Below, piece after piece: positions 9,517 to 42,046 of a stretch of DNA of 64,000 nt. Position numbers and translations under genes: made by a program. Within the stretch, counting starts at the first letter, position 1; each line of letters starts with the position of its first letter. Origin of the DNA: an uncultured Candidatus Saccharibacteria bacterium (GTDB lineage Bacteria > Patescibacteriota > Minisyncoccia > Phycocordibacterales > UBA9973); contig CAZWAV010000001.1 of assembly GCA_964631935.1 (NCBI GenBank), positions 4,979-68,978 on the forward strand. Reading direction: 5' to 3'. The notes below the pieces were generated by a model. It was not told the DNA's origin. It made no database searches and saw nothing but the letters and a program-made list of their open reading frames with translations.

Positions 9517-9600
9517 TATCCCCATAAAATCAAGAGATATATATATACATTAAATAACCAATATTGTATAATTATGTTATTAATACTAAAAAATAAAATC

Positions 9601-12600
9601 ATGAAAATGAAAAAACTTCATCAGCATCTTTCGGATAATTTGTCCTGGTACAAGCATTGGCATGAGACAGGTTTTCATAAAATTATACATTACGGTATAT
9701 TAGGGTTCGCCATCTTGTTTACCGTCGGAACCATTCTGTCTGCTACTACTGCAAGCGCCGTTGGAACCATATACTATGTATCGGCCTCTGGTTCAGACTC
9801 AAATAATGGTACTTCTATTTCTACCCCATGGCAAACAATCGCAAAGGTAAATGCCACCACATTTGTCGCTGGTGATAAAATACTCTTTAATTCTGGTGAT
9901 ACATTTACTGGGACTATCATTCCCTCTGCATCAGGGACATCCACTAATCCTATTACATATGGTGCGTATGGAAGTGGGGCAAAGCCGGTGATTACGGGGT
10001 TTGTAAATGTTTCAGGTTGGACAAGTTTAGGAGGGAATAAATGGGAGAGTGCGGCTCTTTCATCTGCATTTCCAGATATAAATATTTTGTCAGTTAATGG
10101 TGGTAATTATGCAAAAGGCCGAACTCCTGATACTGGATATTGGCCATCAACGAGTGCTACATATACCAAGAGTTCTAATGTTGGTACCATCACCGATACT
10201 GCTAATTTAAATGCAAGTTCAATCAATTGGAAAGATGCACAGGTGGTATTTCGAAGTCAGCGATGGGTTCTCGACAAAGCAACAATTACTGCTGCAAGTA
10301 CTAATAAGATAACTTTTAATGGTGAACCATCAACCACTCCTGGTTGGGGATATTTTATTCAGAATGACCCAAGGACACTCAATCTTGTTAATGAATGGAG
10401 TTATAATCCGACATCAAAACAAATAACTATCTATAGTACTTCGACACCAACGAACGTGAAAGCTCCAGCTATTGATGTGGCAGTAAATCTTAATAGTAAA
10501 GATTATATAACATTTGACGGTATTGATTTTACTGGATTTAATTCAACTGGTATTAATACAACTTCCAAAACTGGGATTACTGTAACAAACTCCGCTTTTA
10601 ATTTTATCGGCATTGATGCTATTTATGCATATCCAAATTCTATTAATTTAAAAGTTACTAATAATACTTTTAATGAGATAAATAGCAGAGGTATTCATGG
10701 TGGCTCTTCTGATAATGCTTTTATTTCGAATAACACCTTAAACAAAATTGGAAATCTTGCTGGGATGGGAAGTAATGGTGATGACAGCTATACTGGTATT
10801 ATATCTATGGGTGATAATGGTATTGTGTCTTTTAATTCAATTACCAATGCTGGTTATGTCGGTATTCGTTGGGATGGAAAAAGTAGTCAGATATTAAAAA
10901 ACTTTGTTGATACTACCAATTATATAAAAGATGATGGAGGAGGTATCTATTCATACCCACAACAAGATGGTACTGCGTACACAACAAGGTATCACGGTTT
11001 TCAGAGAACTGTCGCGAACAACATTGTTATGAATTCAATTGGTGCTGTTGCTGGTGGTGAACCTTCTAGTTCATACAGTCAAGGTGAAGGAATTTATGCT
11101 GATGGATTGAGTCCAAATATTAATTTTACAAATAATACTATTTACAAAGCAAAACTCGGGTTATTTATTAATGGGGGCCATGAAATAACCGCTTCTGGAA
11201 ATACTGTTTATGATACAGAGAGAGGAATAAACTTCATGGCAATCCCTGATAAAAATGGAGTGCAACAGCGTGCCCACGACGTAAGCTTACAAAGCAACAT
11301 TCTTGTAGCCAGAGAATCTTCTTTATATACAGAGTATCCAATATATCTTGAGTTAAAGGCTCCAACTCTCGCAACATGGATGGATGGATTCCTCGCAAAT
11401 AATAATGTGTATGCACGTGTCAGACCAGCCAATGATCCAAAGCTAATATGGCTTGATGTGAGTGGTCCTGCCGATGTATTTAAGTCACTTTCAGAATGGA
11501 GGTTATTTTCAAGTCAAGACTCAAATGCAACTGAATCTCCAGTGGCGTTAACAACATCAACCAATTTACGCTTTGAATATAATGCGTCATCAGCTCCTAA
11601 AGTCGTCTCCCTTACTGAAAAATATGTCGATATGAAAAACGTCGACCAGACTTGCACACTCACTATCCCAGCATGGAGCTCTGTGGTGATGATTAAAACA
11701 GGAACGACTTGTACTTCTAATGGTGACCCAACCCCTCCCTCAACCTCCCTCACATCCCCAACAACAGGTACAACAGTCCTCGGTACCACACAACAAGTAG
11801 CAGCTAATGCTACAGATAATGTAGGTGTCACTAAAGTAGAGTTCTACATAGATGGTACAACTACATTACTAAACTGTACTCCAAACCCAGACACTACATC
11901 ACCATATCTATGTATCTGGAACACTACAACAGTCTCAAACGGTACTCACACAATTACATCTAAAGCCTATGATGCTGCTGGTAACTCAGCTATATCATCT
12001 GTTGTTAGTGTGAATGTGCAGAATGTAGTAACTGATACTACTGCTCCAGTCTTTACACCAACAGGAGCTCTATCGTCACCATCAGCAAACCTTTCAGTTC
12101 CTGTGGGAACATCATACGACATCACTGCTCACGCAACAGACAATGTAGGAATGGCAAAAGTTGAATTCTATAAAGATGGAGTTCTCATCAATACTCAAAC
12201 ATCAGGTCCTAACTCGGACTTCACTTACTCATGGAATACAATAGGTCTAACTGTAGGTTCTACTCACTCATGGACAGCAAAAGCGTACGATACAGCAAGT
12301 CCTGCTAATGTATCAACTACTACAGCTAGAGTGATTACTATTGGAGCTGGAGCAGATACTACACCTCCAACAGCATCTATTACCAATGCAGGAGGATACT
12401 ACAAAGGCGGTACCCGCATGACTCTCAAAGCTACATCCTCAGATAATGTCGGAGTTACGAAAACTGAATTTTATGTAAATGATGTTAAAAAATGCACAGA
12501 CACAACATCACCATATACATGCTCATGGTCTATGCCGTCATCAACAACTGTCACTTCATATGTAATCAAAGCTAAAGCATATGATGCAGCAGGGAATGTT

Positions 12601-13218
12601 GGAACCTCAGCAGATGTGAAGATGACAAATAGGAAGATAGCAGAATTATCTGTGTTAGCTGATGCGGGACCTAATCAAACAATCACACTACCAACTAATT
12701 CAGTAACTCTAACTGGTAGTTATTCAACAAACACGTTAACTACAACAACTACCTGGTCTAAAGTCTCAGGATCAGGTACTATCACTTCTCCTACATCTAC
12801 TACAACTACTGTTACAGGTCTTACTGCTGGAACATCTGTATTTCAGTTTACTGTTGATAATGGAGCTGGTTTTACTACCAGTGCTACTGTGACGGTGGTA
12901 GTGAATGTAGCGGTAAATACAGTTGTGTTCTCTTTTTCTGCTCCACAAGATCCTACAAAACTAGGACCACTTCCAAATGAAAATAGTGGTACCGTGACAA
13001 CAATACAGGTTAATGCGAGCGGTACAAATCCAATAACAAAAGTTGATTTCTATGTAGATGGTAATTTAGTAGGGACAGACAATACTTCAAATCCATTCGG
13101 AACTGTCTGGGATACCACTACTGTGTCTAATGGAGCCCACTTATTTACAGCTAAAGCTACTGATAACTTAGGTAATACGGGCACATCTGCTGCTATAAGT
13201 GTCACTATTAGTAACTAA
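9601..13218 (+). CDS. Large cell-surface protein: N-terminal membrane anchor, right-handed beta-helix (pectate-lyase-like) region, four or more Ig-like (Big) domains
   Basis: N-terminal TM segment. NxxGxxxG-type parallel beta-helix repeats span 10,500-11,200. Repeated ...VTKVEFYIDGT / VAKVEFYKDGV / VTKTEFYVNDV / ITKVDFYVDGN Ig-like modules follow. An extended -10 (TGTATAAT) lies at 9565-9572. Start placed at ATG 9601. Confidence 0.6.
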   Translation: MKMKKLHQHLSDNLSWYKHWHETGFHKIIHYGILGFAILFTVGTILSATTASAVGTIYYVSASGSDSNNGTSISTPWQTIAKVNATTFVAGDKILFNSGDTFTGTIIPSASGTSTNPITYGAYGSGAKPVITGFVNVSGWTSLGGNKWESAALSSAFPDINILSVNGGNYAKGRTPDTGYWPSTSATYTKSSNVGTITDTANLNASSINWKDAQVVFRSQRWVLDKATITAASTNKITFNGEPSTTPGWGYFIQNDPRTLNLVNEWSYNPTSKQITIYSTSTPTNVKAPAIDVAVNLNSKDYITFDGIDFTGFNSTGINTTSKTGITVTNSAFNFIGIDAIYAYPNSINLKVTNNTFNEINSRGIHGGSSDNAFISNNTLNKIGNLAGMGSNGDDSYTGIISMGDNGIVSFNSITNAGYVGIRWDGKSSQILKNFVDTTNYIKDDGGGIYSYPQQDGTAYTTRYHGFQRTVANNIVMNSIGAVAGGEPSSSYSQGEGIYADGLSPNINFTNNTIYKAKLGLFINGGHEITASGNTVYDTERGINFMAIPDKNGVQQRAHDVSLQSNILVARESSLYTEYPIYLELKAPTLATWMDGFLANNNVYARVRPANDPKLIWLDVSGPADVFKSLSEWRLFSSQDSNATESPVALTTSTNLRFEYNASSAPKVVSLTEKYVDMKNVDQTCTLTIPAWSSVVMIKTGTTCTSNGDPTPPSTSLTSPTTGTTVLGTTQQVAANATDNVGVTKVEFYIDGTTTLLNCTPNPDTTSPYLCIWNTTTVSNGTHTITSKAYDAAGNSAISSVVSVNVQNVVTDTTAPVFTPTGALSSPSANLSVPVGTSYDITAHATDNVGMAKVEFYKDGVLINTQTSGPNSDFTYSWNTIGLTVGSTHSWTAKAYDTASPANVSTTTARVITIGAGADTTPPTASITNAGGYYKGGTRMTLKATSSDNVGVTKTEFYVNDVKKCTDTTSPYTCSWSMPSSTTVTSYVIKAKAYDAAGNVGTSADVKMTNRKIAELSVLADAGPNQTITLPTNSVTLTGSYSTNTLTTTTTWSKVSGSGTITSPTSTTTTVTGLTAGTSVFQFTVDNGAGFTTSATVTVVVNVAVNTVVFSFSAPQDPTKLGPLPNENSGTVTTIQVNASGTNPITKVDFYVDGNLVGTDNTSNPFGTVWDTTTVSNGAHLFTAKATDNLGNTGTSAAISVTISN

Positions 13219-24608: not shown

Positions 24609-25199
24609 TTATTTGGTCTCTATAACTTTACCTGGTAAATAGGATATATCTTTAAATGGTAACAGCCGGAAATACGCACGGCCAACCATAAGCTTTCGAG
24701 GGAGCATCCCCCATATGCGTGAGTCTGAACTTCGATTTCGATTATCTCCCATTACGAAATATTCTTCATTGCCCGTTGTATAATCACCAGTGGTACTAAA
24801 TTGTTCATCTATGTAATCTTCTTTTAAGGTGAAACCTTCCGGATGTGCTTGATTTGTGATTGTAACTATGCCGGTCTTAATACTAACTTTTTCATTTGGT
24901 AATCCAATGATGCGCTTAATAAAAAATCTTGATGGATCATTTGGATATCGGAATATAACTACATCTCCACGATGAGGACCGTTTACGATGTAAGAAATTT
25001 CATCAACTATAAGGTACTGACCGTCGTCGAAAGTAGGGAACATTGATTCTCCACTAACAACGAATGGCTGAGCTATGAACATGCGGATGGGTACGACGAT
25101 AGCAAGGGCGATAACAGCAAACTTTAATAGATCCCAAGCACTCTCTGCGTGCTTCTGGATCTTGGCTCTCATGGGTGAAACTGGCTTGTTGTTTTCCAT
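24609..25199 (-). CDS. lepB: Signal peptidase I
   Basis: GESMFPTF (Ser box) and GDNRNRSSDSRIWG. Confidence 0.85.
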   Translation of the reverse strand: MENNKPVSPMRAKIQKHAESAWDLLKFAVIALAIVVPIRMFIAQPFVVSGESMFPTFDDGQYLIVDEISYIVNGPHRGDVVIFRYPNDPSRFFIKRIIGLPNEKVSIKTGIVTITNQAHPEGFTLKEDYIDEQFSTTGDYTTGNEEYFVMGDNRNRSSDSRIWGMLPRKLMVGRAYFRLLPFKDISYLPGKVIETK

Positions 25200-27149: not shown

Positions 27150-27159
27150 AAATTTTGTA

Positions 27160-27186
27160 TTAAAAAAACCGCACTATTTGCGGCGC
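27160..27186 (-). promoter_or_regulatory. Terminator-like hairpin + U7 located 12 nt upstream of the rpsA start codon (possible leader attenuator)
   Basis: Minus strand: GCGCCGCAAATAGTGCGG TTTTTTT AATACAAAATTT ATG. Confidence 0.35.
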
Positions 27187-27307
27187 AGGATGAGAGTCTT
27201 TTGAAATATTGGCCTTCCAATTACGTCATCAGGGTTAATCTCAAGCTGGGCTTATAATCTGCTTACTCTACTACGTTTTTATTACTTTTGCAATAGAAAG
27301 TAGGGGA

Positions 27308-27336
27308 TTGACATACGTGTCATTTTAATGTACACT
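27308..27336 (+). promoter_or_regulatory. sigma70-like promoter TTGACA-17-TACACT
   Basis: Read directly from sequence. Upstream of the 27449 gene. Confidence 0.5.
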
Positions 27337-27448
27337 ATGAGCCATTATTAGTTCCTCGACAAATGTTTTATTGTCGGTATCTTTCATTTTTTCCGCAATA
27401 TATTTGTAGGTAAAATGAAGGATATCTTCAAAACTTAAAACAATAAAC

Positions 27449-29092
27449 ATGAAAAAGGTAATCTACCTATCTCTGCTCTCACTGATTACAGTCAGGGTAA
27501 GTTCTCAAATACCAGTCAAAATTTGGACATTTTCTAATGTTTCAGGAACTGCTACAAGAGTACTCACTCGTTTACCGAGCAATCTAAACAAAGCGGTGGT
27601 TGCTGATCAAGCAGCCGGGTTAATCGAATTGGTTGATGTAACAACATCGACAGTTACAAAAACACCAATCGTTGGTCTTAATGCAACTACAGATTTTGCA
27701 TTAGGGACTCACAAGTCTCCAAATGCTACAGCTGACACGCTTGTTGGCTCATTTGCTTCTGGTGGTTCGAATTACATTTTTGCCCCGATAAATATCGCTG
27801 GTACAAGTGCAAGTATAGACACCAGATGGAGTATTTCTGGAAACAATGGGCGAGCTTATCATTCGATTTTACTTTTACCTTCTGGTAATAGGCAAGTCTA
27901 TTTCGATAAGAATCCTGCTTTTGCAAGTAGTCCGTTTGACTGCTATGTTAATGGAATTCAGATAACGGGCCATTTTGCAGAATTAACCCCTTCGGGTGGG
28001 GTGATTCAAACACAGTGTGAACCGAGTATTTTGGTTCCACCGGTGGTCCCGCCTATTCCAATGGTTAACGAACCGTTTTATCTGTTGTCCGGTGATATAT
28101 TTTACCCCGGATCATTTACAACAGTAAATGGAGTAGCTTCAGGTAAGGCATTCAAGCTTAGCGCTGATGGTACAGTTGTTACCCCCTTAAGCCTAAGTAA
28201 TTCTAATCAAGCCAATGTCTACACAGCAGGTGGCAGGATTGGGACTAATGGAGTTACTTATATTGCCTATAGTTCAGGAGTGCTGGGAACCCCATTGATA
28301 ACTTTTGATGAAAATACCAACACATTCGGATCTGTGGGAGCGCCACTTGTGTATCAAAATCCACAAAGTGCTCCATTTGAAAAGAATGGAAAAATGTACG
28401 TGACCGGTTCAACACCTATTTCAGCTTCAACAGGAAGCACAATATTGGCTCTAGACATGGTGACTTCTACTTGGGAGGATAATGATAATGGGCTATGGAT
28501 TAACGGTTATGCTGCAAACCAGACTGTGACCCAGATATTTTTTGGTGTTACAGGAGATTGTGGATTTATTTTCGGTAATATGGGTCAAAATACTGGTACT
28601 CTCGCGAGCAATGTATCATTTCAAGCTGCAATGTGCCCGCCAGTTGTTCTTGCTTTCGGTATGGAATTAAAGTTTGTACGTAAAAATGATTTCGAAATCA
28701 CATTACATTTTACAAATGTGGATCAGAGTACAGTTTTACAGAAAAGTACTAACGGAGTTAATTTCATAGACTTACCAAATGCTTTAGGGGTAAACAGTGA
28801 AGGTAATGTAAAAGTAGGGAATATCACAACAGGAGATTCTTATTTCAGATTAAGATCAGTCAACACTTACTCAAATATTGTAAGGGTTGCATCATCAAAA
28901 GATAACATCACTGTTATGGGTTTGAATGTTTATTTCCCCAATGGTAATACATTGGAAGTTTACAACACGTTGGGTCAAAAAGTTGCTATATACAAAAACG
29001 GCAACGCGATCCTAACACAAAAGGGTATTTTAATTTTAGCTTCTATTTCACCTAACGGGGAAAGAGAAATTAAGAAAGTATTTATCCAATAA
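27449..29092 (+). CDS. Secreted protein with T9SS-type C-terminal sorting domain look-alike
   Basis: Signal peptide. The last ~75 aa (...LNVYFPNGNTLEVYNTLGQKVAIYKNGNAILTQKGILILASISPNGEREIKKVFIQ) resemble the Por_Secre_tail/TIGR04183 pattern. Confidence 0.5.
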   Translation: MKKVIYLSLLSLITVRVSSQIPVKIWTFSNVSGTATRVLTRLPSNLNKAVVADQAAGLIELVDVTTSTVTKTPIVGLNATTDFALGTHKSPNATADTLVGSFASGGSNYIFAPINIAGTSASIDTRWSISGNNGRAYHSILLLPSGNRQVYFDKNPAFASSPFDCYVNGIQITGHFAELTPSGGVIQTQCEPSILVPPVVPPIPMVNEPFYLLSGDIFYPGSFTTVNGVASGKAFKLSADGTVVTPLSLSNSNQANVYTAGGRIGTNGVTYIAYSSGVLGTPLITFDENTNTFGSVGAPLVYQNPQSAPFEKNGKMYVTGSTPISASTGSTILALDMVTSTWEDNDNGLWINGYAANQTVTQIFFGVTGDCGFIFGNMGQNTGTLASNVSFQAAMCPPVVLAFGMELKFVRKNDFEITLHFTNVDQSTVLQKSTNGVNFIDLPNALGVNSEGNVKVGNITTGDSYFRLRSVNTYSNIVRVASSKDNITVMGLNVYFPNGNTLEVYNTLGQKVAIYKNGNAILTQKGILILASISPNGEREIKKVFIQ

Positions 29093-29114
29093 AAATTTAA
29101 AGTTTAAAATAATA

Positions 29115-29148
29115 CCAGCTTCCTTGAAAAAGGGAGCTGTTTTTTTAT
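29115..29148 (+). terminator. Rho-independent terminator
   Basis: CAGCTTCC...GGGAGCTG followed by T7. Confidence 0.75.
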
Positions 29149-29271
29149 TTATAATCTGACAAAAATAACCCCTTGACTTTCTCTTATAAATTTGGTACAG
29201 TATGCACCTCATAGTAATGATATTGATTTATCACGGCTTTAATTATTAACAAGTTAAGTATTTACAAACAA

Positions 29272-30390
29272 ATGACAAAAAAGATTTTTTCATACGTTTT
29301 AGTTTTTGCTTTTGCATTTTTTATAAGTGCACAGACAATTCCTAAAATAGTTCGCGCAAGCCTTGCATTACCACAATGCCAAGACGGTTTAGATAACGAT
29401 TCTGATGGAGTTATAGATAACTTAGACCCACAGTGTCACACAGATGGCGATGCTTCTAATGCATTTTCATATGACGCAAATATCGACAATGAAGCTGCGC
29501 CTCCAGGTGGTGGTCTTGCATTACCACAATGCCAAGATGGTTTAGATAACGATTCTGATGGAGTTATAGATAACTTAGATCCACAGTGTCACACAGATGG
29601 CGATGCTTCTAATGCATTTTCATATGACGCAAATATCGACAATGAAGCTTCACCAGTAATAATAACTAGCGGAGGTGGAGGAGGAGGTGGACATCATCTA
29701 TGTTCTGATACATTAGATAATGACAGTGATGGAGTTGTCGATTCAGCTGATCCAGGATGTCATAGTGATGGCGATCCTACTAACACTGCTTCATATAACC
29801 CATTCGATGATAGTGAATTAAACACAAATACTGTAACTACAGCTCCAGTGCCACAAGTTCTGGGTGCTACTACTGGTCCAGTAGAATGTGGTGGTCTTAC
29901 AGGCCGACCATGTTCATTACAGAAGACAGGTGGTACAGAAGTATCTCAAAGAACTCTATTAAACAGAAAGGCAAATGCTATTGCAATGAGTGAACACAAT
30001 GAACTAATTATTCCAAAGCTAGGAATAGACAAAAATGTTCTCTACTATCAATCAACTGACTCTCTATTTAAGGAAGCAATGCTCCTACCTTGGACATCTA
30101 CGCCAGATAAAGGTGGTAACACTGTTCTTGTCGGACATGCTTACTACCTTAGAAATAATATTTACTCTAAGTCTACATTTTATGAACTAGATAAAATGTC
30201 TGCTGGCGACGAAATTACGATGTACTGGAAAGGAGTAAAATACACATACATAGTAAAAGAAATGAAGAAAGTGACTCCAGACCAAATAGATATTGAAAGT
30301 CCTACAACAACACCGACTCTCACTATTTATTCTTGTGGACGATTCACGAATCTTACAAGAACAGTAGTTGTAGCTACTCTTAAGGCCTAA
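29272..30390 (+). CDS. Secreted sortase-domain protein with N-terminal Cys/Asp-rich Ca-binding-like repeats
   Basis: Signal peptide. Three repeats of QCxDGxDNDSDGVxDxxDPxCH. The C-terminal domain carries NTVLVGHAYY...GDEITMYWKGVKYTYIV...TLTIYSCGRF...R, matching the sortase His, TLxTC-like Cys and Arg. Confidence 0.6.
   Translation: MTKKIFSYVLVFAFAFFISAQTIPKIVRASLALPQCQDGLDNDSDGVIDNLDPQCHTDGDASNAFSYDANIDNEAAPPGGGLALPQCQDGLDNDSDGVIDNLDPQCHTDGDASNAFSYDANIDNEASPVIITSGGGGGGGHHLCSDTLDNDSDGVVDSADPGCHSDGDPTNTASYNPFDDSELNTNTVTTAPVPQVLGATTGPVECGGLTGRPCSLQKTGGTEVSQRTLLNRKANAIAMSEHNELIIPKLGIDKNVLYYQSTDSLFKEAMLLPWTSTPDKGGNTVLVGHAYYLRNNIYSKSTFYELDKMSAGDEITMYWKGVKYTYIVKEMKKVTPDQIDIESPTTTPTLTIYSCGRFTNLTRTVVVATLKA
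29362..29650 (+). repeat. Near-identical in-frame tandem duplication (2 x 136 bp, period 153 bp, 3 mismatches) inside the sortase-domain gene
   Basis: Unit 1 at 29362-29497 and unit 2 at 29515-29650 were compared base by base. Confidence 0.9.
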
Positions 30391-33902: not shown

Positions 33903-33950
33903 TTAACGTAATAAAAAATACCTCTTATTGGGGTATTTTTTATTACGTTA
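33903..33950 (+). terminator. Terminator embedded in a perfect 19-bp inverted repeat
   Basis: TAACGTAATAAAAAATACC-tcttattgg-GGTATTTTTTATTACGTTA. Confidence 0.75.
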
Positions 33951-33966
33951 TGTTATAATTAAACAT

Positions 33967-34494
33967 ATGTTTTCAAACCCAGAACAAAATATTGCATCTC
34001 TTTCTTTAAAGGAAGGTATGCGTGTTGCTGACTTAGGCGCTGGAACTGGGTTCTATTCTATAGAGGCAAGTAAAAGAGTCGGTCATACTGGTAAAGTCTA
34101 TGCTGTTGAAGTTCAGAAAGACATGGTTAAGAAACTAGAAAGCGAACTAAAAGAAAAAGGAATTAAAAATGTCGATTGTATTTGGGGTGACATAGAAAAA
34201 TCAGGTGGTACTAAAATTGCAGATGGGAGTATTGATGCTGTGGTACTTTCTAATATTTTGTTTCAAGTTTCTGATAAACTTGGTCTTATAGATGAAGCAA
34301 AAAGAATATTAAAAAAAGGCGGTAAGGTTTTATTGGTAGATTGGATGGAGTCATATGGAGGTATGGGTCCAGCACCTCATCATGTAGTTACAGAGAAAGT
34401 GGCACAAGAACTTTTCGATAAAAGAGGTTTTAAAACACTAGAAAATATTTCTTCCTCCGACCATCATTATGGTATAATTTTTACACATGAATAA
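33967..34494 (+). CDS. Class I SAM-dependent methyltransferase
   Basis: VADLGAGTGFYSIEA motif I followed by an acidic motif II (VLLVDW). Confidence 0.7.
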   Translation: MFSNPEQNIASLSLKEGMRVADLGAGTGFYSIEASKRVGHTGKVYAVEVQKDMVKKLESELKEKGIKNVDCIWGDIEKSGGTKIADGSIDAVVLSNILFQVSDKLGLIDEAKRILKKGGKVLLVDWMESYGGMGPAPHHVVTEKVAQELFDKRGFKTLENISSSDHHYGIIFTHE

Positions 34495-35794
34495 TTTCCA
34501 GACAATTTTAGTTTCTGTATTCTTGGCTTTCTTTGTATTTGCTGTCTTGATATTCTCTGGACTCTTAAAAATTGGTAATTCTTCAAATAAAGATACTTCT
34601 AAGCCAGTAGGTAAAGTTGTTATTTGGGGCACTTTTCCGAATACACCTGAATTTTCTAAGGTCTTTGAAGATACGAATAGTGCTAATCTAGACCTGACTA
34701 TTAGTTATAAAAAACAATCAGAATCAACATATAAGCAGTCTCTTATAGAGGCATTTGCTTCTGGTAAGGGGCCTGATTTATTTATAATAACCCCAGACAT
34801 GGTACAGAAGTTTGGTGATTTTATATATAAAGTGCCATATACTAGCTATGCACAGAAGACATTCCAGGATGCATTTATAGATGGAGCGAATGTTTATCTT
34901 TCAAGTGATGGAGTCATAGGTTTTCCAATCGCAGTGGACCCTATGGTGCTTTATTACAATAAGGATATTTTTTCTAATGAAGGCATCGTTTCTCCACCAC
35001 AATATTGGGATGATCTTTTCGGTTTGAGTAGTAGATTAACAAAGAAGAAAGATGATGGAACGATACTACAGAGCATGATAGCTCTTGGAAGATTTGATAA
35101 TATAAAACACTCGAAGGATATATTGGCAACATTACTTCTCCAAAGCAACAATCCTATTATAGAAAGAAGCTCTACTGGCTATGTATCAGTTCTTGATGAA
35201 AATGCGCAAGCTCTCCCAGTATCTCCAATAGAACAAATACTTAAATTTTTCATAGAATTTTCTAATCCATCCGACAATGCTTATTCATGGAATCGTTCGC
35301 TATCGAATTCTATGGATATGTTTACAGGAGGTAAACTCGCTATGTATATAGGGCGTGCCAGTGAGTTATTTAATATTGAATCAACAAATCCAAATTTAAG
35401 TTTTGATGTCACAAATATACTCCAGACACGAGGTACAAATATAAAACGTACATATGGAAATATTTATGCAATTGCTGTAAATAAAAAGTCTACCAACTTA
35501 ACTGCGGCTTTCGGTGTAGCTGGAATTCTTAGTACGGGCGATACAGCCAAGAATCTTGCCGTAGCACTTTCTCTACCTCCTGCATCAAAGACTTTACTTG
35601 CCACAAAACCAGCTGATCCATATCTTTTCACTTTCTTTAATTCAGCCATAGTTTCTCGCACATGGCTTGATCCTGATAGTACGCAGAGTGATGCTATCTT
35701 TGGGGAGTTAATCCAAAACGTCTTATCCAGTAAATTATCAATGGGTGATGCTATAGGTAAAGCTCAAGGCCAGCTTGATTCTATAAATAAATAA
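34487..35794 (+). CDS. Membrane-anchored extracellular solute-binding-protein-like protein (SBP family 1-like)
   Basis: N-terminal TM. VVIWGTF...GPDLFII...DPMVLYYNKDIF resembles MalE-type SBPs. No permease is adjacent. Confidence 0.45.
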   Translation: MNNFQTILVSVFLAFFVFAVLIFSGLLKIGNSSNKDTSKPVGKVVIWGTFPNTPEFSKVFEDTNSANLDLTISYKKQSESTYKQSLIEAFASGKGPDLFIITPDMVQKFGDFIYKVPYTSYAQKTFQDAFIDGANVYLSSDGVIGFPIAVDPMVLYYNKDIFSNEGIVSPPQYWDDLFGLSSRLTKKKDDGTILQSMIALGRFDNIKHSKDILATLLLQSNNPIIERSSTGYVSVLDENAQALPVSPIEQILKFFIEFSNPSDNAYSWNRSLSNSMDMFTGGKLAMYIGRASELFNIESTNPNLSFDVTNILQTRGTNIKRTYGNIYAIAVNKKSTNLTAAFGVAGILSTGDTAKNLAVALSLPPASKTLLATKPADPYLFTFFNSAIVSRTWLDPDSTQSDAIFGELIQNVLSSKLSMGDAIGKAQGQLDSINK

Positions 35795-35795
35795 T

Positions 35796-36266
35796 ATGAA
35801 AAAAAATATATCAATATCTATAATACTCCTCACAATACTGTTTGCCCCGTTTATTGGTACAAAGTTAGCCTACGTAGAAGCAAAGCCTATTGTTCCTGAT
35901 TGTGGAACCCTCTCTACTCCTACTGATAGTAGTGGTAATCCAAAAAAAGATTCTGCAGGTAACATAATCACACAAAAAGTCATAACTAATCCTTGTGATT
36001 TCGATGATTTAATGGATTTGATAAACAACCTCATTAACTTCTTGCTATTCGTTATTGCTACACCCCTCGTGGCAATCATACTTTGCTATGTAGGATTTAA
36101 ATTGCTTACTTCAGGGGGTAATTCAGAAGGTATGACTAAAGCCAAAACTATACTAAAGAATGTTATTTTTGGTTATATAATAGCTCTTATTGCATGGCTG
36201 CTTATAAAGACCATACTTACAACTGTAGGTATTGATCCAAAGGATGCTTTCCTTATTGAATTCTAA
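35796..36266 (+). CDS. VirB2/TrbC-like pilin paralog 1
   Basis: Signal peptide, a short variable domain with 2 Cys, then hydrophobic helix - charged loop (SGGNSEGMTKAK) - hydrophobic helix. Confidence 0.5.
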   Translation: MKKNISISIILLTILFAPFIGTKLAYVEAKPIVPDCGTLSTPTDSSGNPKKDSAGNIITQKVITNPCDFDDLMDLINNLINFLLFVIATPLVAIILCYVGFKLLTSGGNSEGMTKAKTILKNVIFGYIIALIAWLLIKTILTTVGIDPKDAFLIEF

Positions 36267-36297
36267 TTATCAACTAAATGTTATATAATAATCTCAT

Positions 36298-36819
36298 ATG
36301 AATATTTTCAGAGTAAAAGGTAAAAAATTAGTCTTAGAAATTACAAAATATCTTTTTGTCTTCTTGGTAGCTTTTGTTTTAATTAGACCAGTTTTTGCTG
36401 ATCCTTGTACGGGTCAAGACAATACTGGAACTCCTACTCCTTATGGTTGTACTTCTACAATTGATAATACCCAACAGAATAGTTCTACAATTGACAACAC
36501 AAAACCCAATACAGATACTGGTATAAAAATTAATTCAGGAATAAAAAACCCACTTGGTAATGGCTTTGGTTCTGACATTCCAACTTTCCTAGAATCAGTT
36601 TTAAATTTCTTTCTCCTAATAGGTATACCTATTATTACTTTGGCGATAATATACTGTGGTTTCCTTTTTGTTACAGCACAAGGCAATTCTGAGAAATTGA
36701 AAAAGGCCAAGCAAGCATTACTCTACACTATAGTTGGCGCAGCTCTATTACTTGGCTCTCTGGTTATAACTCGTGCCATTCAAGGTACAGTCGATGAAAT
36801 TAAAACTAACAATAAATAA
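36298..36819 (+). CDS. VirB2/TrbC-like pilin paralog 2
   Basis: Same TM-loop-TM C-terminal module (…CGFLFVTAQGNSEKLKKAKQALLYTIVGAALLLG…). Confidence 0.5.
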   Translation: MNIFRVKGKKLVLEITKYLFVFLVAFVLIRPVFADPCTGQDNTGTPTPYGCTSTIDNTQQNSSTIDNTKPNTDTGIKINSGIKNPLGNGFGSDIPTFLESVLNFFLLIGIPIITLAIIYCGFLFVTAQGNSEKLKKAKQALLYTIVGAALLLGSLVITRAIQGTVDEIKTNNK

Positions 36820-36822
36820 TTT

Positions 36823-37125
36823 ATGGATATTTGTAAAACAGCAGAGACAAAATTAGATAGCATTGGGCATATATTTAACTGGGCAAGTTGTACGCTTATT
36901 AAGTTTGTTGTGCCTCTACTTTTTTCTCTTGCGACAGTAGGGTTTATCTGGGGTATCATTCAATATTTCTTAAACCCCGATAATGAAGAAAAGCGTAAAA
37001 AAGGGAAGAGTTATATGATTTGGGGATTGATTGCTCTGTTTGTGATGGTGAGTATGTGGGGACTGGTTGGAGTACTGACGAAGACCTTCGGCATCCAGAC
37101 ACTTATTCCCCAGCTTTCACAGTAG
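36823..37125 (+). CDS. VirB2/TrbC-like pilin paralog 3
   Basis: …FIWGIIQYFLNPDNEEKRKKGKSYMIWGLIALFVMVSMWG…. Confidence 0.5.
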   Translation: MDICKTAETKLDSIGHIFNWASCTLIKFVVPLLFSLATVGFIWGIIQYFLNPDNEEKRKKGKSYMIWGLIALFVMVSMWGLVGVLTKTFGIQTLIPQLSQ

Positions 37126-37253
37126 GGTATTGTAATTTGTTAGTTCTTTTATGATATAATAGAGGGGTAAATAAGTAGATAGTACATTACCTGCGGTCGC
37201 AAGGTAATGACAAATTATTATAAGAGTTTTTTATTAATTAATTTAGTTAACTT

Positions 37254-37610
37254 ATGAAGAAAATTATTGCATTCGGTTTAGCGTTCGGCGTAACTCCATT
37301 CTTGGCTCTTGCCGCAGATGCGTTCAGTATTATTACAAAGATAAATCAAATACTTTCTCTCGTTATTCCAGTTTTGATTACTCTTGCTGTTGTTTACTTT
37401 ATCTGGGGTATTATCCAATACACTCTTTCTACAGATGAAGAAAAGAAAAAGAAAGCTCGTGGGATGATCATCAATGGTCTTATCGGTCTATTTATAATCG
37501 TTGCTTTCTGGGGTATCATCAGACTTGTTACAAATACATTTGGTGTTGGTCCTGAACAACTAAACTCAAACGCTATACCTTGTATCCCTGGCCCTGGTGT
37601 TCCTTGCTAG
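37254..37610 (+). CDS. VirB2/TrbC-like pilin paralog 4
   Basis: …FIWGIIQYTLSTDEEKKKKARGMIINGLIGLFIIVAFWG…. Confidence 0.5.
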   Translation: MKKIIAFGLAFGVTPFLALAADAFSIITKINQILSLVIPVLITLAVVYFIWGIIQYTLSTDEEKKKKARGMIINGLIGLFIIVAFWGIIRLVTNTFGVGPEQLNSNAIPCIPGPGVPC

Positions 37611-37633
37611 TACTAGTCTACAACTAATAATAT

Positions 37634-39469
37634 ATGAGTTTTAATATTGTCCCAGTCGCAGAGGCAGATGTCCTTACGCTCGTTAAGAGTATTGATAAGG
37701 TTATTATTAACCCCATCATAATCTTCTTATTCGCTGTCGCGATGGTCTACTTCCTCTACGGCGTGGCACAATATCTATTAGCCTCAGATAATGAAGAAGT
37801 CCGAAGCAAAAGCAAATCTCACATGATGTGGGGTGTAATCGGGCTTTTTATTATGGTTGCCGTATTCGGCATCATGAGGATACTCCTAAATACATTCGGA
37901 GAAACTAAAATCCAAGTTAATAGTAACGGCGACTTTAATGTCACAGGTACAACTCTAAACGATACCCCTGTTGCCAATAATCCTGGTACGGGTGGAGATT
38001 TGTTTAAGCCTGGTTCGGTAGATGTGAGTACAAATACTGACTCTCCTGCTCTAGGATCTAATCAGTACATAACAAGTCCATTCCCAATGTATGAAGCACA
38101 TGCTACAACTTGTTGGAGTAACATATCTTATAGCAAAGCAGGAACTGAATTTAATGCTCTTGAATTAGTCAAAGCTAATGCCAAAACTAGATACTTGTCT
38201 GCTAGTGGTATGACAAGCTTGCAAGCTGATAAGTTGGGCTATCCAAAAGCTTTTGAGACAAAAGTTCTATACGATAAAACAGGGAAGATATATTATGCCT
38301 GGCTTGATTCTAGAGCACCTATAGGTACTGGGACCATGACTGATTGTAATTTGAAAGTTCTAGCTCCAGCCCCTACACTCCCCGCATCTATAGTATTCTC
38401 TCAGTCTGATGTTAGTAGTGCAACTGATACAGCAAACCTACCTCAAGATGTATATACAAGTAGTCCATTCCCAACTTTCGAAGCAAAGCCTGCGGTGTGT
38501 TGGAATAATGGCAACAGTCCATTCCTAGCTAAAGGTAGTACTGAGTTCAATGCTCTAGAATTGGTTAAAGCAAATGCACGTAAGAAATATTTGTCGGATA
38601 ATAATATTTCCGTTACAGATAGTACAAAAGCAAATTACCCTGTGATTTTTGAATCAAAAGTTCTCTATGATAAAAAGGCCAAGATTTATTACGCATGGCT
38701 TGATTCTCGCGCACCTATAGGAACAGGGAAGATGACTGACTGTAATTTGAAAGTAGTTACACCTGCTCGTGCGGTACCTGATTCAATAGTTTTTTCCCAA
38801 GTTGATGCAACAGGAGGAGTGTTAAACCTTAGTGGTTCAACTACAGACAATAATATTGCGGATTACACAAAGAGCCCATTCAAGCAGAAATATATTCCCA
38901 ATAATCTTTGCTGGCGTGAGCAAATATACAATAAAGCAAATACTGAATTTGAAGCATCAAGCCAGGTAAAGTTTAACGCACGTTTAGATTATCTTAGTGC
39001 TAGTCATTTGACTGAGAGTACAGCCCCACAGAACTTGCCTACAGTTTATGGATCATTTACTGCCTATGACAAGGTAAACAAAGTCTACTATGTATGGCTC
39101 GATGTCCGAGCTCCTATAGGAGCAGGTAGTAAGGCATCTGACTGTAACTTGGCCCCTGATGGTGCGCCTATCACTCTACAAGAGCCTACAGCTCGAAGTG
39201 CCAAGCCAAACCCTCTATCTGCAAAAGCACAAACGTCAAAAGATTCGAATGACTCATATTATAGAGTTATTGATTCGGGGGCTGACAACAACTATTTCGT
39301 CGCTCGCAATATTGCTATAAATAATGCTCTTATTCAAATAGCTAAACTAAAAGGTCTAGATAGTATTACTGATATAACATCAAAGACTATAGTAGAAGAG
39401 AAGTACTATCCTCAAGATCCTTATACTCTCAACTTTGACTATTGGGTAGCTATAGAATCTCCTAAATAG
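37634..39469 (+). CDS. VirB2/TrbC-like pilin paralog 5 with long C-terminal extension of three ~110-aa Cys-pair repeats
   Basis: N-terminal pilin module (…FLYGVAQYLLASDNEEVRSKSKSHMMWGVIGLFIMVAVFG…). Followed by 3 divergent repeats, each with SPFP..E...CW......TEF.A.ELVKANA..YLS....YD...KIYYAWLDSRAPIGTG.MTDCNLKV. Confidence 0.5.
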   Translation: MSFNIVPVAEADVLTLVKSIDKVIINPIIIFLFAVAMVYFLYGVAQYLLASDNEEVRSKSKSHMMWGVIGLFIMVAVFGIMRILLNTFGETKIQVNSNGDFNVTGTTLNDTPVANNPGTGGDLFKPGSVDVSTNTDSPALGSNQYITSPFPMYEAHATTCWSNISYSKAGTEFNALELVKANAKTRYLSASGMTSLQADKLGYPKAFETKVLYDKTGKIYYAWLDSRAPIGTGTMTDCNLKVLAPAPTLPASIVFSQSDVSSATDTANLPQDVYTSSPFPTFEAKPAVCWNNGNSPFLAKGSTEFNALELVKANARKKYLSDNNISVTDSTKANYPVIFESKVLYDKKAKIYYAWLDSRAPIGTGKMTDCNLKVVTPARAVPDSIVFSQVDATGGVLNLSGSTTDNNIADYTKSPFKQKYIPNNLCWREQIYNKANTEFEASSQVKFNARLDYLSASHLTESTAPQNLPTVYGSFTAYDKVNKVYYVWLDVRAPIGAGSKASDCNLAPDGAPITLQEPTARSAKPNPLSAKAQTSKDSNDSYYRVIDSGADNNYFVARNIAINNALIQIAKLKGLDSITDITSKTIVEEKYYPQDPYTLNFDYWVAIESPK

Positions 39470-39474
39470 GTAAA

Positions 39475-39508
39475 AGAAAACGCCCAGTATAAACGGGGCG
39501 TTTTTGTT
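39475..39508. terminator. Bidirectional terminator
   Basis: AAAACGCCC...GGGGCGTTTTT. Confidence 0.8.
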
Positions 39509-39524
39509 TTAATTGAGAACAATT

Positions 39525-40520
39525 TTATCTAGTTTTTAAGATCTTAGCAACTTCTTTAACAAGTTTGGAGAGATCACCATCAAAACTGAATTGTTTCTTG
39601 TCGATTGTTTTTTTAACAATCTCAAGAATTACTTCTGCAGCTTGAAGCTGTTCACTCTCACTTCCGCTAGGCATAACATATTCACCAACACTTTTTACTC
39701 GTTTCTTCAATGCGTCAGCAGCTATATCCTTAGCTTCTTGTTTAAGAGCTTCAATAACCTTAAGAGCTAATGCTTCATAATAAGCTGGATCTAGTTCTGT
39801 GTCACCTATAGTTATATTTAATACAATATAAGGATAATTCTGGCTTTCACAAAATCTGTTTATCCTCTCAGACAATTCGTGTTCCATGTCATGAATAGTT
39901 GTACCCTTATCACTATCAAGCGCACTTGGTTCAAGCGTTCCCACTTTATGAATAAAGAATTCATCTGTGCACCTCATAATTTCCGCCTTGATAGTTTCAA
40001 GACCACCTTCAATGGTGAGTATTTTAGCTCCTTCCTGGTCATTATCTCTTTTGATCATGATTCTGATGTCTCTTATCCACGCTTTTATTTTTTTAAGAGT
40101 GATAAGAGTGGGAGTTGTCGGCATTACCAAAGGAATTCTTCGTAAATCCAAAGTAGTACCCATTTGAGTAAACAATGGATCAACCCAGGCAATACGCTGT
40201 TTTACTGTCCCAACTGGACGACCAGATAATTCTGATATGACTATTGTTTCTGTCAGTACGCTACCTTTGCGTCCGCCTAGATAGATGTAAACGATACAGA
40301 TAATCATACAGATAATTAATGACAATAATACTGGAACATCAACTATGTCATTCTCAATTGAGCCAATAAAGAGCAATAACCTTACAATGAAGATTACTGA
40401 ACCAATAACCATAATCAATAGTGGTAGTAGCTTAAGCTTGTAAGCGGTAAAAAACAGGTTTGCTATAGTTACCATTACAAATATACCCACTAAAATCCAA
40501 AGATTTGAAATAACTGACAT
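39525..40520 (-). CDS. SPFH/band-7 (stomatin/HflK-like) domain membrane protein
   Basis: Two N-terminal TM helices, then an SPFH core and a coiled-coil tail. Start placed at MSVISNLW. Confidence 0.65.
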   Translation of the reverse strand: MSVISNLWILVGIFVMVTIANLFFTAYKLKLLPLLIMVIGSVIFIVRLLLFIGSIENDIVDVPVLLSLIICMIICIVYIYLGGRKGSVLTETIVISELSGRPVGTVKQRIAWVDPLFTQMGTTLDLRRIPLVMPTTPTLITLKKIKAWIRDIRIMIKRDNDQEGAKILTIEGGLETIKAEIMRCTDEFFIHKVGTLEPSALDSDKGTTIHDMEHELSERINRFCESQNYPYIVLNITIGDTELDPAYYEALALKVIEALKQEAKDIAADALKKRVKSVGEYVMPSGSESEQLQAAEVILEIVKKTIDKKQFSFDGDLSKLVKEVAKILKTR

Positions 40521-40536
40521 TTTTTTAAGTTTTGAG

Positions 40537-40977
40537 TTAAAGATCAATAGTGCAATCTTTTTTGGATTCACACCTACCAATTTTAACGGTGATTGAATGA
40601 TCACTTTTATTTACAAAAGTGATGTGAGTTGAGATAGATGAGTCACATGGACCAGAAATACAATGTCCTTTCATGGTTGCAAGTGTTCCTTGAGAATTGT
40701 ATCTCTCAATTTTGTCGCTTGACCACATAGGAATGTAATCGTAGGTTAATTTTACTCTTACTGTTTTACCTGCTCCTACTTTGAATTTAAGTATGTCCCC
40801 ATATGGGGTTTCTCTTAAATCATAAGTTCTTGCTCTATTGTTCCAAAGTATAGTAGCAATCGCAAGGACCACAACTCCTAAAATCAAAAGTATTACGGTA
40901 AGTATTACTTTTGAATTTCTGGGTGTTGGTAGGGTTGGAGGTATTGGTGTCGAATGAGAGTGAGATGATGTTGTCAT
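40537..40977 (-). CDS. Small membrane-anchored beta-rich protein, possible NfeD-like partner of the SPFH protein
   Basis: One TM plus a ~100-aa C-terminal domain. Lies directly upstream of the SPFH gene, which is the usual NfeD-SPFH arrangement. Confidence 0.3.
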   Translation of the reverse strand: MTTSSHSHSTPIPPTLPTPRNSKVILTVILLILGVVVLAIATILWNNRARTYDLRETPYGDILKFKVGAGKTVRVKLTYDYIPMWSSDKIERYNSQGTLATMKGHCISGPCDSSISTHITFVNKSDHSITVKIGRCESKKDCTIDL

Positions 40978-41238: not shown

Positions 41239-41310
41239 GGCCTTATCGTCTAACGGTTAGGACATCGGCTTTTCAAGCCGGTAATCCGGGTTCGATTCCC
41301 GGTAGGGTCA
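41239..41310 (+). tRNA. tRNA-Glu (anticodon TTC)
   Basis: Manual fold: acceptor GGCCTTA/TAGGGTC (with G-U pairs), anticodon loop TTTTCAA, T-arm CCGGGTTCGATTCCCGG. Confidence 0.8.
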
Positions 41311-41313
41311 CAA

Positions 41314-41346
41314 TACAAAAAGCCACAGAAATGTGGCTTTTTGTAT
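41314..41346 (+). terminator. Rho-independent terminator after tRNA-Glu
   Basis: ACAAAAAGCCACA-gaaa-TGTGGCTTTTTGT. Confidence 0.8.
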
Positions 41347-41386
41347 ATACATATACCGCTTAGACCCTTTGTGCTAAACTGTAAAT

Positions 41387-42046
41387 ATGACAGATCCAGA
41401 ATTTCATACAAGTGAGAATCCAAAAGAACAAGCATCAGAGTATATCACTAATGTTTTAAAAGACCACTTAATTAAAGGTGAGAAAGTTTTATGGCTAGTA
41501 CCTGGAGGCTCAGCTATTGCTGTGGCGGTTATGATATCAAAAGAGTTACAAGATTTTGATTGTAAAAATTTAACTATATCACTTACAGATGAGAGATATG
41601 GAGAAATTGGACACAATGACTCAAGCTGGTATCAGTTAGAAAAAGCCGGTTTTAGTGTTCCTGGAGCACAACTTTATCCTGTCCTTCAAGGCAAAAATAT
41701 AGAAGAAACTGTGGGAGAGTATAATAATACGTTAAAGAATTTTATAGATGAAGCAGATTTTATTATAGGCCTTTTTGGTATTGGTGCTGATGGACACACG
41801 GCTGGAATACTTCCAGGGAGCCCTGCTGTAGAATCTTCTGATTTGGCGTTTGGATATCAAGGAGGGAATTATTATCGAATTACAGTTACACCTACAATTA
41901 TCCCTTTTATAGATGAGGTTGTCGTATATGCGACAGGAGAAGAAAAGAAAGAGACTTTAGAAAAACTGAAAGGTGATAATACTTTCCTTGAACAGCCAGC
42001 GCAGTGTCTTAAACAGGCAGGTAAGTTTATTATTTTTAATAATTAA
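41387..42046 (+). CDS. pgl: 6-phosphogluconolactonase
   Basis: LVPGGSAIAV motif and length. Operon with gnd and zwf. Confidence 0.7.
   Translation: MTDPEFHTSENPKEQASEYITNVLKDHLIKGEKVLWLVPGGSAIAVAVMISKELQDFDCKNLTISLTDERYGEIGHNDSSWYQLEKAGFSVPGAQLYPVLQGKNIEETVGEYNNTLKNFIDEADFIIGLFGIGADGHTAGILPGSPAVESSDLAFGYQGGNYYRITVTPTIIPFIDEVVVYATGEEKKETLEKLKGDNTFLEQPAQCLKQAGKFIIFNN

Follow-up and report, generated by a model that had tools for sequence, protein, structure and literature searches.

A fixed-order cassette of five type IV secretion system pilin-family genes in Paceibacteria

We describe a tandem cassette of five genes, here named P1 to P5, on a 64,000-nucleotide stretch of DNA from an uncultured bacterium (contig CAZWAV010000001.1 of assembly GCA_964631935.1, positions 4,979 to 68,978; hereafter the window). 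The products of P1–P5 belong to the pilin family of type IV secretion systems (T4SSs), and the genes represent five ancient orthologous groups that are kept in a fixed order among relatives. The window is chromosomal core DNA, carrying dnaE, gyrA, ftsZ, ftsA, mreB, hisS and pentose-phosphate genes, and its source is a Patescibacterium of the Paceibacteria/Parcubacteria group. On balance, the cassette probably encodes a heteromeric pilus, or a wall-spanning conduit, that rests on a T4SS encoded elsewhere, with P4, and perhaps also P5, as the bulk of the structure, P1–P3 as accessory subunits and the ectodomain of P5 as the part that contacts the host. A large part of bacterial diversity belongs to the Patescibacteria, which apparently live off other cells and whose T4SS is essential in the sole species tested. 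Because VirB2-like pilin arrays have already been published for these bacteria between 2023 and 2025 (PMC10633639, PMC12102498), the basic discovery is confirmatory. What is new here is the fixed cassette of five orthogroups, its uncoupling from virB4, its solute-binding protein (SBP)-like partner, an internal promoter candidate with a leader hairpin, and a domain specific to P5.

A shared two-helix module of the T4SS pilin family

As originally predicted, the five genes are consecutive and co-oriented (Table 1). Hydropathy and an alignment of the five modules reveal that their products have in common a segment of ~75 aa consisting of two hydrophobic helices and a loop that is first acidic and then basic (e.g., NPDNEEKRKKGKS). 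A hidden Markov model (HMM) of this module, run against the six-frame translation of the window, returned exactly P1–P5, the next best match lying at E = 0.13, and identity to P1 across the array is 16–31%. AlphaFold2 places the two helices at residues 13–49 and 54–87 of P5 and at residues 14–58 and 62–95 of P4, the P4 model, from a 5-sequence alignment, being of low confidence.

The proteins differ in what surrounds the module. P1 and P2 each begin with a signal-peptide-like N-terminus followed by an ectodomain, of ~45 aa with the Cys pair C36/C67 in P1 and of ~60 Thr/Asn-rich aa with the pair C37/C51 in P2, and their modules occupy residues 71–147 and 96–166, respectively. P3 is without a signal peptide; its short N-terminal tail carries the pair C4/C23 and its module spans residues 21–92. 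P4 has a canonical Sec signal peptide (…FLALA↓AD), a module at residues 25–99 and a C-terminal PCxPxxGxxC tail of 19 aa. In P5 a short, conserved N-terminal tail (MxFxIIPxAEA) leads into the module at residues 14–90 (about 13–90), which is followed by a low-complexity linker and then four domains. The extensions flank the hairpin and are never inside it, on the N side in P1–P3 and on the C side in P3–P5, and they contain paired cysteines, which would be expected of segments outside the cytoplasm. This placement fits the known topology of pilins, in which the loop is cytoplasmic or luminal and both termini are outside. Enzymes of the signal peptidase I type cleave VirB2/TraA leaders in known systems, and a housekeeping gene for one (Peptidase_S26) is present on the minus strand at 24609–25199.

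Several details of the original prediction are revised by these results. The shared helix-loop-helix module stands, but the proposal that all five genes end in it holds for P1–P3 only, since P4 has its 19-aa Cys-pair tail and the module of P5 is N-terminal. The motif (I/L)WG(I/V)IQY, ascribed to four of the five, occurs as IWGIIQY in P3 and P4 alone, with LCYVGFKLL in P1 and IYCGFLFV in P2; the variant LYGVAQY is found in P5 as described. The values of 100, 173, 100, 118 and 611 aa that had been given for the N-terminal parts are total protein lengths, and that of P1 is 156 aa.

PF18895 (T4SS_pilin, gathering threshold 26.6 bits) is the top Pfam match for all five proteins; P1–P4 exceed the threshold by 10–18 bits and P5 falls short of it by 1.2 bits. 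Position-5 relatives do pass: the bare P5 of the relative RAAC4_OD1_1 (locus L038) scores 37.6 bits, and several P5 homologues carry a precomputed PF18895 annotation. All five proteins of RAAC4_OD1_1 pass this profile, also as their top match. With the TrbC profile PF04956 (threshold 27.9 bits), which had been proposed as the check, P2, the most TrbC-like of the five, passes, whereas P1 reaches 15.8 bits and P3–P5 give no match. The top NCBIfam match for all five is NF045849, a “pilin-like conjugal transfer protein” of a Mycoplasma integrative and conjugative element (Mbov_0395), with scores of 21.1, 20.1, 32.1, 36.4 and 36.3 bits for P1–P5 against a curated cut-off of 40 bits; judged by these scores, the cassette proteins appear to be related to NF045849 and not equivalogs of it. 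An hhalign comparison shows homology between the orthogroups of P2 and P4 (probability 94.5%), and cassette orthologues in relatives have been tabulated under the MPF_T VirB2 and MPF_FATA PrgF profiles (PMC12102498, Table S3).

None of P1–P5 has the class III leader of type IV prepilins, G↓F(T/S)LIE, each having two hydrophobic helices instead, and no pilin family of type IV pili (T4P) is among their Pfam or NCBIfam matches. Holin families give no Pfam match for P1–P5 at E up to 1, and there is no endolysin or phage context; in one orthologue, Phage_holin_4_1 scores 16.8 bits, under its cut-off of 22.2 (E = 0.007). Because PF18895 is the top match throughout and there is neither a prepilin leader nor a holin match, the assignment to the T4SS pilin family stands. 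The predicted VirB2/TrbC type, as opposed to GFTLIE pilins, is thereby upheld, and the competing thought that the module belongs to an unrelated family, such as a holin-like one, found only sub-threshold noise. A tblastn search with P2 against 72,556 plasmids gave no match.

Fixed-order orthology and the P5-specific extension

To compare relatives, one genome per species was scanned with the P5 alignment, which yielded 109 confirmed P5 relatives, and 80 of these loci were compared. Local HMM searches found the cassette in nearly all 80, with exactly five pilin genes in 64 and six or seven in a few; at least 64 species of Paceibacteria carry it. For 314 of 320 modules the best match in another genome is found at the same array position, with a median identity of 54% for same-position matches vs ~31% for other positions. 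By these values the genes form five ancient orthologous groups of constant order and are neither recent nor interchangeable copies. The loop motif and the helix lengths are kept across the 64 species, and orthologues are 53–89% identical in the module vs 5–60% in the extensions. P4 is the steadiest of the five in length and sequence, ranging from 82 to 147 aa over 64 loci with a module that is 59–88% identical to its orthologues. Identical P1–P5 proteins in the same arrangement are present on five metagenome contigs.

The original prediction had read the five divergent pilins, with their hypervariable ectodomains, as suggesting an antigenically or functionally variable surface filament. The fixed positional orthology makes the cassette a poor fit to an antigenic-variation array, and nothing that could drive variation was found: the window contains no long near-identical DNA repeats, tandem DNA repeats or invertible segments, its longest internal repeat being 161 nt at 75% identity.

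Some lineages depart from the common plan. P1 has an N-terminal extension of ~600–680 aa in other lineages (L037 7288–9393; L068 7089–9386), with IPT/TIG Ig-like domains in L037, and in L044 (9911–10717) P3 has two pilin modules in a single protein. A solitary sixth PF18895 gene follows clpB ~10 kb downstream of the cassette in three loci (L070 20809–21126; L072 21032–21280; L092 5315–5803). It was considered as a lead to a T4SS cluster and rejected, its neighbours in L092 being miaA and a peroxiredoxin gene.

In the window the C-terminal extension of P5 measures 520 aa, and AlphaFold2 (mean pLDDT 83.4) models the protein as the hairpin followed by four β-α-β-β domains (Table 1). Three of these correspond to the repeats of ~105 aa, each with a Cys pair, that had been noted originally, their starts spaced by 129 and 137 residues; a repeat HMM adds a fourth, degenerate and Cys-less copy, by which the earlier count was incomplete. 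Taken separately, the repeats have no Pfam match. A Foldseek search of the Protein Data Bank (PDB) with the domain gave nothing at E ≤ 1e-3, the best matches being FTT1539c, a SIMPL-like protein and dodecin, all of them β-α-β-β folds. Among the related loci the domain is confined to position-5 proteins, in 22 loci and in 2–6 copies, and in most lineages P5 is bare, at ~105 aa. An exhaustive HMMER search of 1.84 billion representative proteins retrieved 37 matches, which comprise 33 proteins with an N-terminal pilin module, 3 fragments and 1 weak match. Since 33 of the 37 carry the pilin module, this is a narrow, lineage-specific domain known essentially only as a pilin appendage. In one P5 homologue (P0068) a Kazal-type inhibitor domain is placed ahead of the β-α-β-β domains.

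Operon organisation and neighbourhood of the cassette

The cassette is preceded by a conserved order of plus-strand genes, namely an MBL-fold gene, a 108-aa open reading frame (ORF), gyrA, a gene for an S-adenosylmethionine (SAM)-dependent methyltransferase and a gene for a membrane-anchored SBP-like protein, with an S1-domain gene farther upstream on the opposite strand (Table 1). A perfect hairpin directly 3' of gyrA is likely to be the terminator between gyrA and the cassette operon. The extended -10-like element that adjoins it is, from its sequence, a candidate promoter for the methyltransferase gene, the SBP-like gene and P1–P3, and its spacing of 8 nt to the start codon suggests a leaderless transcript at the operon start. 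The methyltransferase gene is syntenic in about 76 loci. The stop codon of the SBP-like gene lies 1 nt ahead of the P1 start codon, and this gene is immediately upstream of P1 in 58–60 of 60 evaluable loci, with gaps mostly of 0–10 nt; it is an orphan, there being no ABC permease or ATPase gene in the window.

The interval between P3 and P4 is unlike the others, with a median of 124 nt vs 8–20 nt for the remaining gaps. The pattern TGnTAnA[A/C]T is present in this gap in 56 of 60 loci (shuffled mean 4.1) and GGTCG in 46 of 60 (shuffled mean 1.9). In the subclade of the window GGTCG sits in a hairpin loop whose stems vary in sequence among loci yet remain complementary. The gap may thus be described as a candidate internal promoter driving P4 and P5, and its leader, which has no Rfam match, may be an unannotated regulatory leader. 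From this arrangement we infer that P4 and the co-transcribed P5 would be expressed separately from the upstream genes and more strongly. P4 is a candidate for the bulk subunit because of the putative internal promoter, its most constant length and its canonical signal peptide.

Directly 3' of the P5 stop codon, a G+C-rich hairpin and T-run are the likely terminator of the operon. The gene beyond it is oriented towards the cassette (ORF 39525–40604), and the genes downstream of the cassette are variable and of housekeeping type. At 39525–40977 on the minus strand the window has two overlapping genes, for proteins of 359 aa with N-terminal transmembrane segments and of 146 aa, neither with a Pfam match; no more than about 9–11 related loci keep the pair immediately behind the cassette, and a link between the two is unlikely.

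Table 1. Cassette genes, P5 domains and associated features in the window
Feature	Position (nt)	Strand	Description
Hairpin with T-rich run	33904–33950	+	Perfect 19-bp inverted repeat, 100% complementary, directly 3' of gyrA
Methyltransferase gene	33928–34494	+	Class I SAM-dependent methyltransferase, 175–188 aa; Methyltransf_31 E = 4e-20; first gene of unit
Extended -10-like element TGTTATAAT	33951–33959	+	Candidate; 8 nt before ATG 33967 (gene start in metagenome)
SBP-like gene	34487–35794	+	Membrane-anchored SBP-like protein, 435 aa; SBP_bac_8 2e-18, SBP_bac_1 6e-18
P1	35796–36266	+	156 aa; PF18895 36.2 bits; positional orthologues in 64 loci
P2	36298–36819	+	173 aa; PF18895 38.2 bits; PF04956 TrbC 30.9 bits
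P3	36823–37125	+	100 aa; PF18895 45.0 bits
P3–P4 intergenic region	37126–37253	+	Conserved in ~60 species; candidate internal promoter (-35 TTGTAA, 37130–37135; extended -10 TGATATAAT, 37152–37160) and 5' untranslated region hairpin (37183–37212; loop GGTCG, 37196–37200)
P4	37254–37610	+	118 aa; PF18895 44.6 bits
P5	37634–39469	+	611 aa; PF18895 25.4 bits; NF045849 36.3 bits
P5 domain 1	38060–38371	+	aa 143–246; Cys pair C160/C238
P5 domain 2	38447–38767	+	aa 272–378; Cys pair C289/C370
P5 domain 3	38858–39163	+	aa 409–510; Cys pair C426/C504
P5 domain 4	39248–39466	+	aa 539–611; degenerate, Cys-less repeat copy (repeat HMM)
Hairpin, then TTTTTGTTT	39472–39509	+	G+C-rich stem and T-run directly 3' of the P5 stop codon

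Other features of the window were recorded alongside the cassette. At 27449–30390 a sortase gene (29272–30390) comes after an ORF of 547 aa that matches no Pfam family, and the two may form a sortase-anchored surface protein pair near the pilin operon. A protein of 1214 aa encoded at 9574–13218, with four Big_7 Ig-like domains, a PKD-like domain and a right-handed β-helix, is a candidate large adhesin or surface enzyme. Downstream (3') of tRNA-Glu, at 41239–41400, there is strain-level variation: the window has 6PGL-6PGDH-G6PD genes at this site, where the metagenome contigs L001 (13606–15912) and L002 (11798–13357) have a 255-aa ORF, accompanied in L001 by a C5 DNA methylase gene, and the site may be a small island. 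At ~27150–27450 the minimum of the cumulative GC skew (near 27.3 kb) falls where the genes change orientation from minus to plus, which is origin-like. A replication origin near 27.3 kb was nevertheless rejected, as there is no dnaA gene and DnaA boxes are not enriched (17 matches vs 20.9 expected by chance).

What the cassette may build and how it compares with known systems

If, as we consider probable on balance, the cassette serves a T4SS, then P1–P5 would be non-redundant subunits of one envelope structure, the base of which would be a monoderm-type T4SS (VirB4, TrsD, VirB3 and VirB6) encoded elsewhere on the chromosome. Each protein would insert into the membrane as a helical hairpin with the Lys-rich loop in the cytoplasm and both termini facing outward, and once the subunit is drawn out of the membrane, its loop would form the lining of the lumen, with the termini displayed on the exterior. 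P4, together with the equally small P5 of most lineages, would be made from a strong internal promoter as the bulk subunit, whereas P1–P3, with short disulfide-bonded extracellular knobs, would serve in smaller amounts as accessory or priming subunits. In the present subclade P5 would have gained its C-terminal string of 2–6 β-α-β-β domains, which would be shown on the outside and most plausibly form a host-contact module.

Relatives bear indirectly on the proposed dependence on a distant T4SS. VirB4 has been found in 2,417 of 3,035 Patescibacteria assemblies (PMC12102498), and all seven cassette-bearing relatives that are present in that dataset are entered as “VirB4: Yes”. In RAAC4_OD1_1 the genes for VirB6, VirB3, TrsD, VirB4 and a further VirB2 are coding sequences (CDSs) 531–537, about 250 CDSs from the cassette, and from the cassette region only CDS 287 is tabulated, as a PrgF homologue “not near VirB4”. 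In GW2011_GWB1_43_19, CDSs 126, 128 and 129 are matches to T_virB2 or PrgF, far from VirB3 and TrsD at CDSs 634–635. The piecemeal entries for these two genomes indicate that the published census touched the cassette only in part.

A number of observations weigh against this reading. Pfam searches with every window ORF of at least 120 aa gave no match to VirB4, VirD4, VirB6, VirB3 or VirB8, which bears out the original statement that VirB4, VirD4 and VirB6 are missing here. On metagenome contigs that reach 6–10 kb past both window ends there is again no T4SS gene; these extensions hold housekeeping genes only, SecA at one end and, at the other, YceG among others. The region in which no T4SS gene was found thus reaches about 41 kb before the array and about 34 kb beyond it. 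Nor do the 80 related loci have a T4SS gene in their ±10 kb flanks, where none of the large P-loop ORFs is VirB4-like. The constant partner of the cassette is the SBP-like gene and not a T4SS component, P3 and P5 are without a classical signal peptide, and a bulk subunit may, for steric reasons, not easily accommodate an appendage of 520 aa. Profiles of 62 P4 and 61 P2 orthologues, searched against the PDB, returned G protein-coupled receptor and designed-protein noise and no solved pilin. To our knowledge, no Patescibacterial T4SS pilus has ever been observed.

An alternative is a membrane complex that is independent of any T4SS, in which the hairpins would act as anchors or oligomerisation units and the proteins would form, with the SBP-like protein, a surface platform without a filament, for example in solute capture or adhesion. 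The lack of linkage to virB4 wherever examined, the constancy and close spacing of the SBP-like gene, an operon without an ATPase, and the non-specific nature of the helical-hairpin fold matches, those of the low-confidence P4 model included, all speak for it. We nonetheless regard it as unlikely, because the proteins are homologous to PF18895, TrbC and PrgF, the homologous Saccharibacteria arrays sit within a T4SS cluster and are essential (PMC10633639), and the seven checkable relatives all encode VirB4; in addition, the conserved acidic-then-basic loop is a hallmark of pilin loops that line a lumen (bioRxiv 10.64898/2025.12.18.695078). That the resemblance to PF18895 is due to chance, the genes encoding unrelated small membrane proteins (holin-like or CrgA-like) of similar hydrophobic composition, seems very improbable indeed. 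Many weak matches to unrelated transmembrane families, the sub-threshold holin match and the failure of solved pilins to give a significant match speak for it; against it stand the margin by which four of the five beat the curated Pfam cut-off, the top rank of PF18895 for all five here and in RAAC4_OD1_1, the matches of orthologues to independent CONJScan profiles (T_virB2 and FATA_prgF), and the conservation of loop motif and helix lengths.

Antigenic or host-range variation, with the paralogs as interchangeable major pilins that are alternated to vary the surface or to match hosts, has a precedent in the virB2 paralogs of Bartonella and Anaplasma (cited in PMC12102498), and it would agree with the low identity among members, the fast divergence of the extensions between species and the variable copy number of the P5 repeats. 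The positional orthology, however, indicates an old set whose members are kept individually; moreover, there are no recent duplicates, gene-conversion-grade repeats or invertible elements, leader type and the side of the extension vary from member to member in a systematic way, and strain-level contigs carry identical proteins. We therefore hold this explanation to be distinctly improbable. A more far-reaching proposal is that of a separate and hitherto uncharacterised kind of surface organelle of the T4SS family, a heteromeric filament or conduit of set make-up, with five dedicated VirB2-like subunits and a co-translated SBP-like partner, genetically uncoupled from the ATPase cluster, its stoichiometry controlled by its own internal promoter and GGTCG hairpin, with P5 as a tip or sheath adhesin and the SBP-like protein passing host molecules to the conduit. 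We advance it as a speculation with rather little probability; if it is true, then the structure would be a device for the uptake of nutrients or macromolecules and not a conjugative pilus. For experiment, the locus offers P4, a candidate for the bulk subunit, the ectodomain of P5, a candidate for host binding, the SBP-like partner and the conserved leader upstream of P4.

Arrays of VirB2-like pilins are an established feature of the Patescibacteria. In S. epibionticum an array of 6 genes lies inside the T4SS cluster SEML1_0006–0019, and pilin arrays are essential in this species (Wang et al. 2023 Cell, PMC10633639). When PF18895, PF04956 and CONJScan profiles were run on 3,035 genomes of Patescibacteria (Quiñonero-Coronel et al. 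2025 Microb Genom, PMC12102498), 441 VirB2 arrays came to light, with 2–11 genes each, a mean identity of 25% and their greatest abundance in Microgenomatia and Saccharimonadia; a legend to one of the supplementary figures describes a ring for arrays “near virB4”. A 2025 review names pilin arrays as a notable feature of the group (PMC12857230), and the original proposal of a surface structure in a lineage that lives attached to other cells is in keeping with all three publications. The present cassette resembles the published arrays in being a tandem, chromosomal run of PF18895/VirB2-like genes in a monoderm host without relaxase context, in its size and divergence, with five genes at 16–31% identity where the published arrays have 2–11 at ~25%, and in having members that are structurally similar and divergent in sequence; members of the Paceibacteria cassette indeed appear piecemeal in Table S3 of PMC12102498, as T_virB2 or FATA_PrgF “not near VirB4”. 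It differs from the S. epibionticum array in that no virB4 is found within tens of kb and in its position downstream of gyrA and behind the SBP-like gene. The fixed organisation in five orthogroups, the internal promoter and the fusion of the P5 domain were not found described in PMC10633639, PMC12102498 or PMC12857230. The census suggested that array variety possibly aids adaptation to different hosts; unlike this view of spare variants, a five-subunit set in fixed order across the class argues for separate structural roles.

Compared with VirB2/TrbC/TraA pilins (PF04956), the cassette proteins are likewise small, with two transmembrane helices, a short charged loop and termini predicted to be outside; P1, P2 and P4 have a predicted leader of the cleavable type, and P2 passes the TrbC cut-off. 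In contrast, such pilins are usually encoded by one gene inside a virB or tra operon, whereas here five distinct genes of a monoderm bacterium lie apart from the ATPase, extensions reach 520 aa (and ~680 aa in relatives), and P1 and P3–P5 remain below the TrbC threshold. Closer in context are PrgF_B2 of pCF10 and Mbov_0395 (NF045849), which belong to monoderm T4SSs and have a two-helix hairpin with a functional charged loop, and to which the cassette is tied by the matches of its orthologues to MPF_FATA PrgF and by the top NCBIfam rank of NF045849, although all cassette scores (20–36 bits) are under its cut-off. PrgF has been described as an essential, pilus-forming VirB2 homologue of Gram-positive bacteria, and in Gram-positive systems with several PrgF candidates only one was modelled as a pilus (ter Beek et al., December 2025 preprint, bioRxiv 10.64898/2025.12.18.695078). 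It is a single gene adjoining virB6 on a conjugative plasmid, whereas the cassette has five chromosomal genes with no relaxase nearby.

Sets of major and minor pilins or pseudopilins are found in type II secretion systems (GspG-H-I-J-K) and in T4P (PilA with FimU-PilVWXE). Their fold and leader are unrelated to those of the cassette proteins, which have no class III signal peptide or GFTLIE, and their assembly ATPase belongs to another family. By analogy alone, however, the cassette would be reminiscent of these sets, in which related small subunits are individually conserved: it comprises five such subunits in fixed order, with one compact and probably abundant member accompanied by members that bear extra domains.

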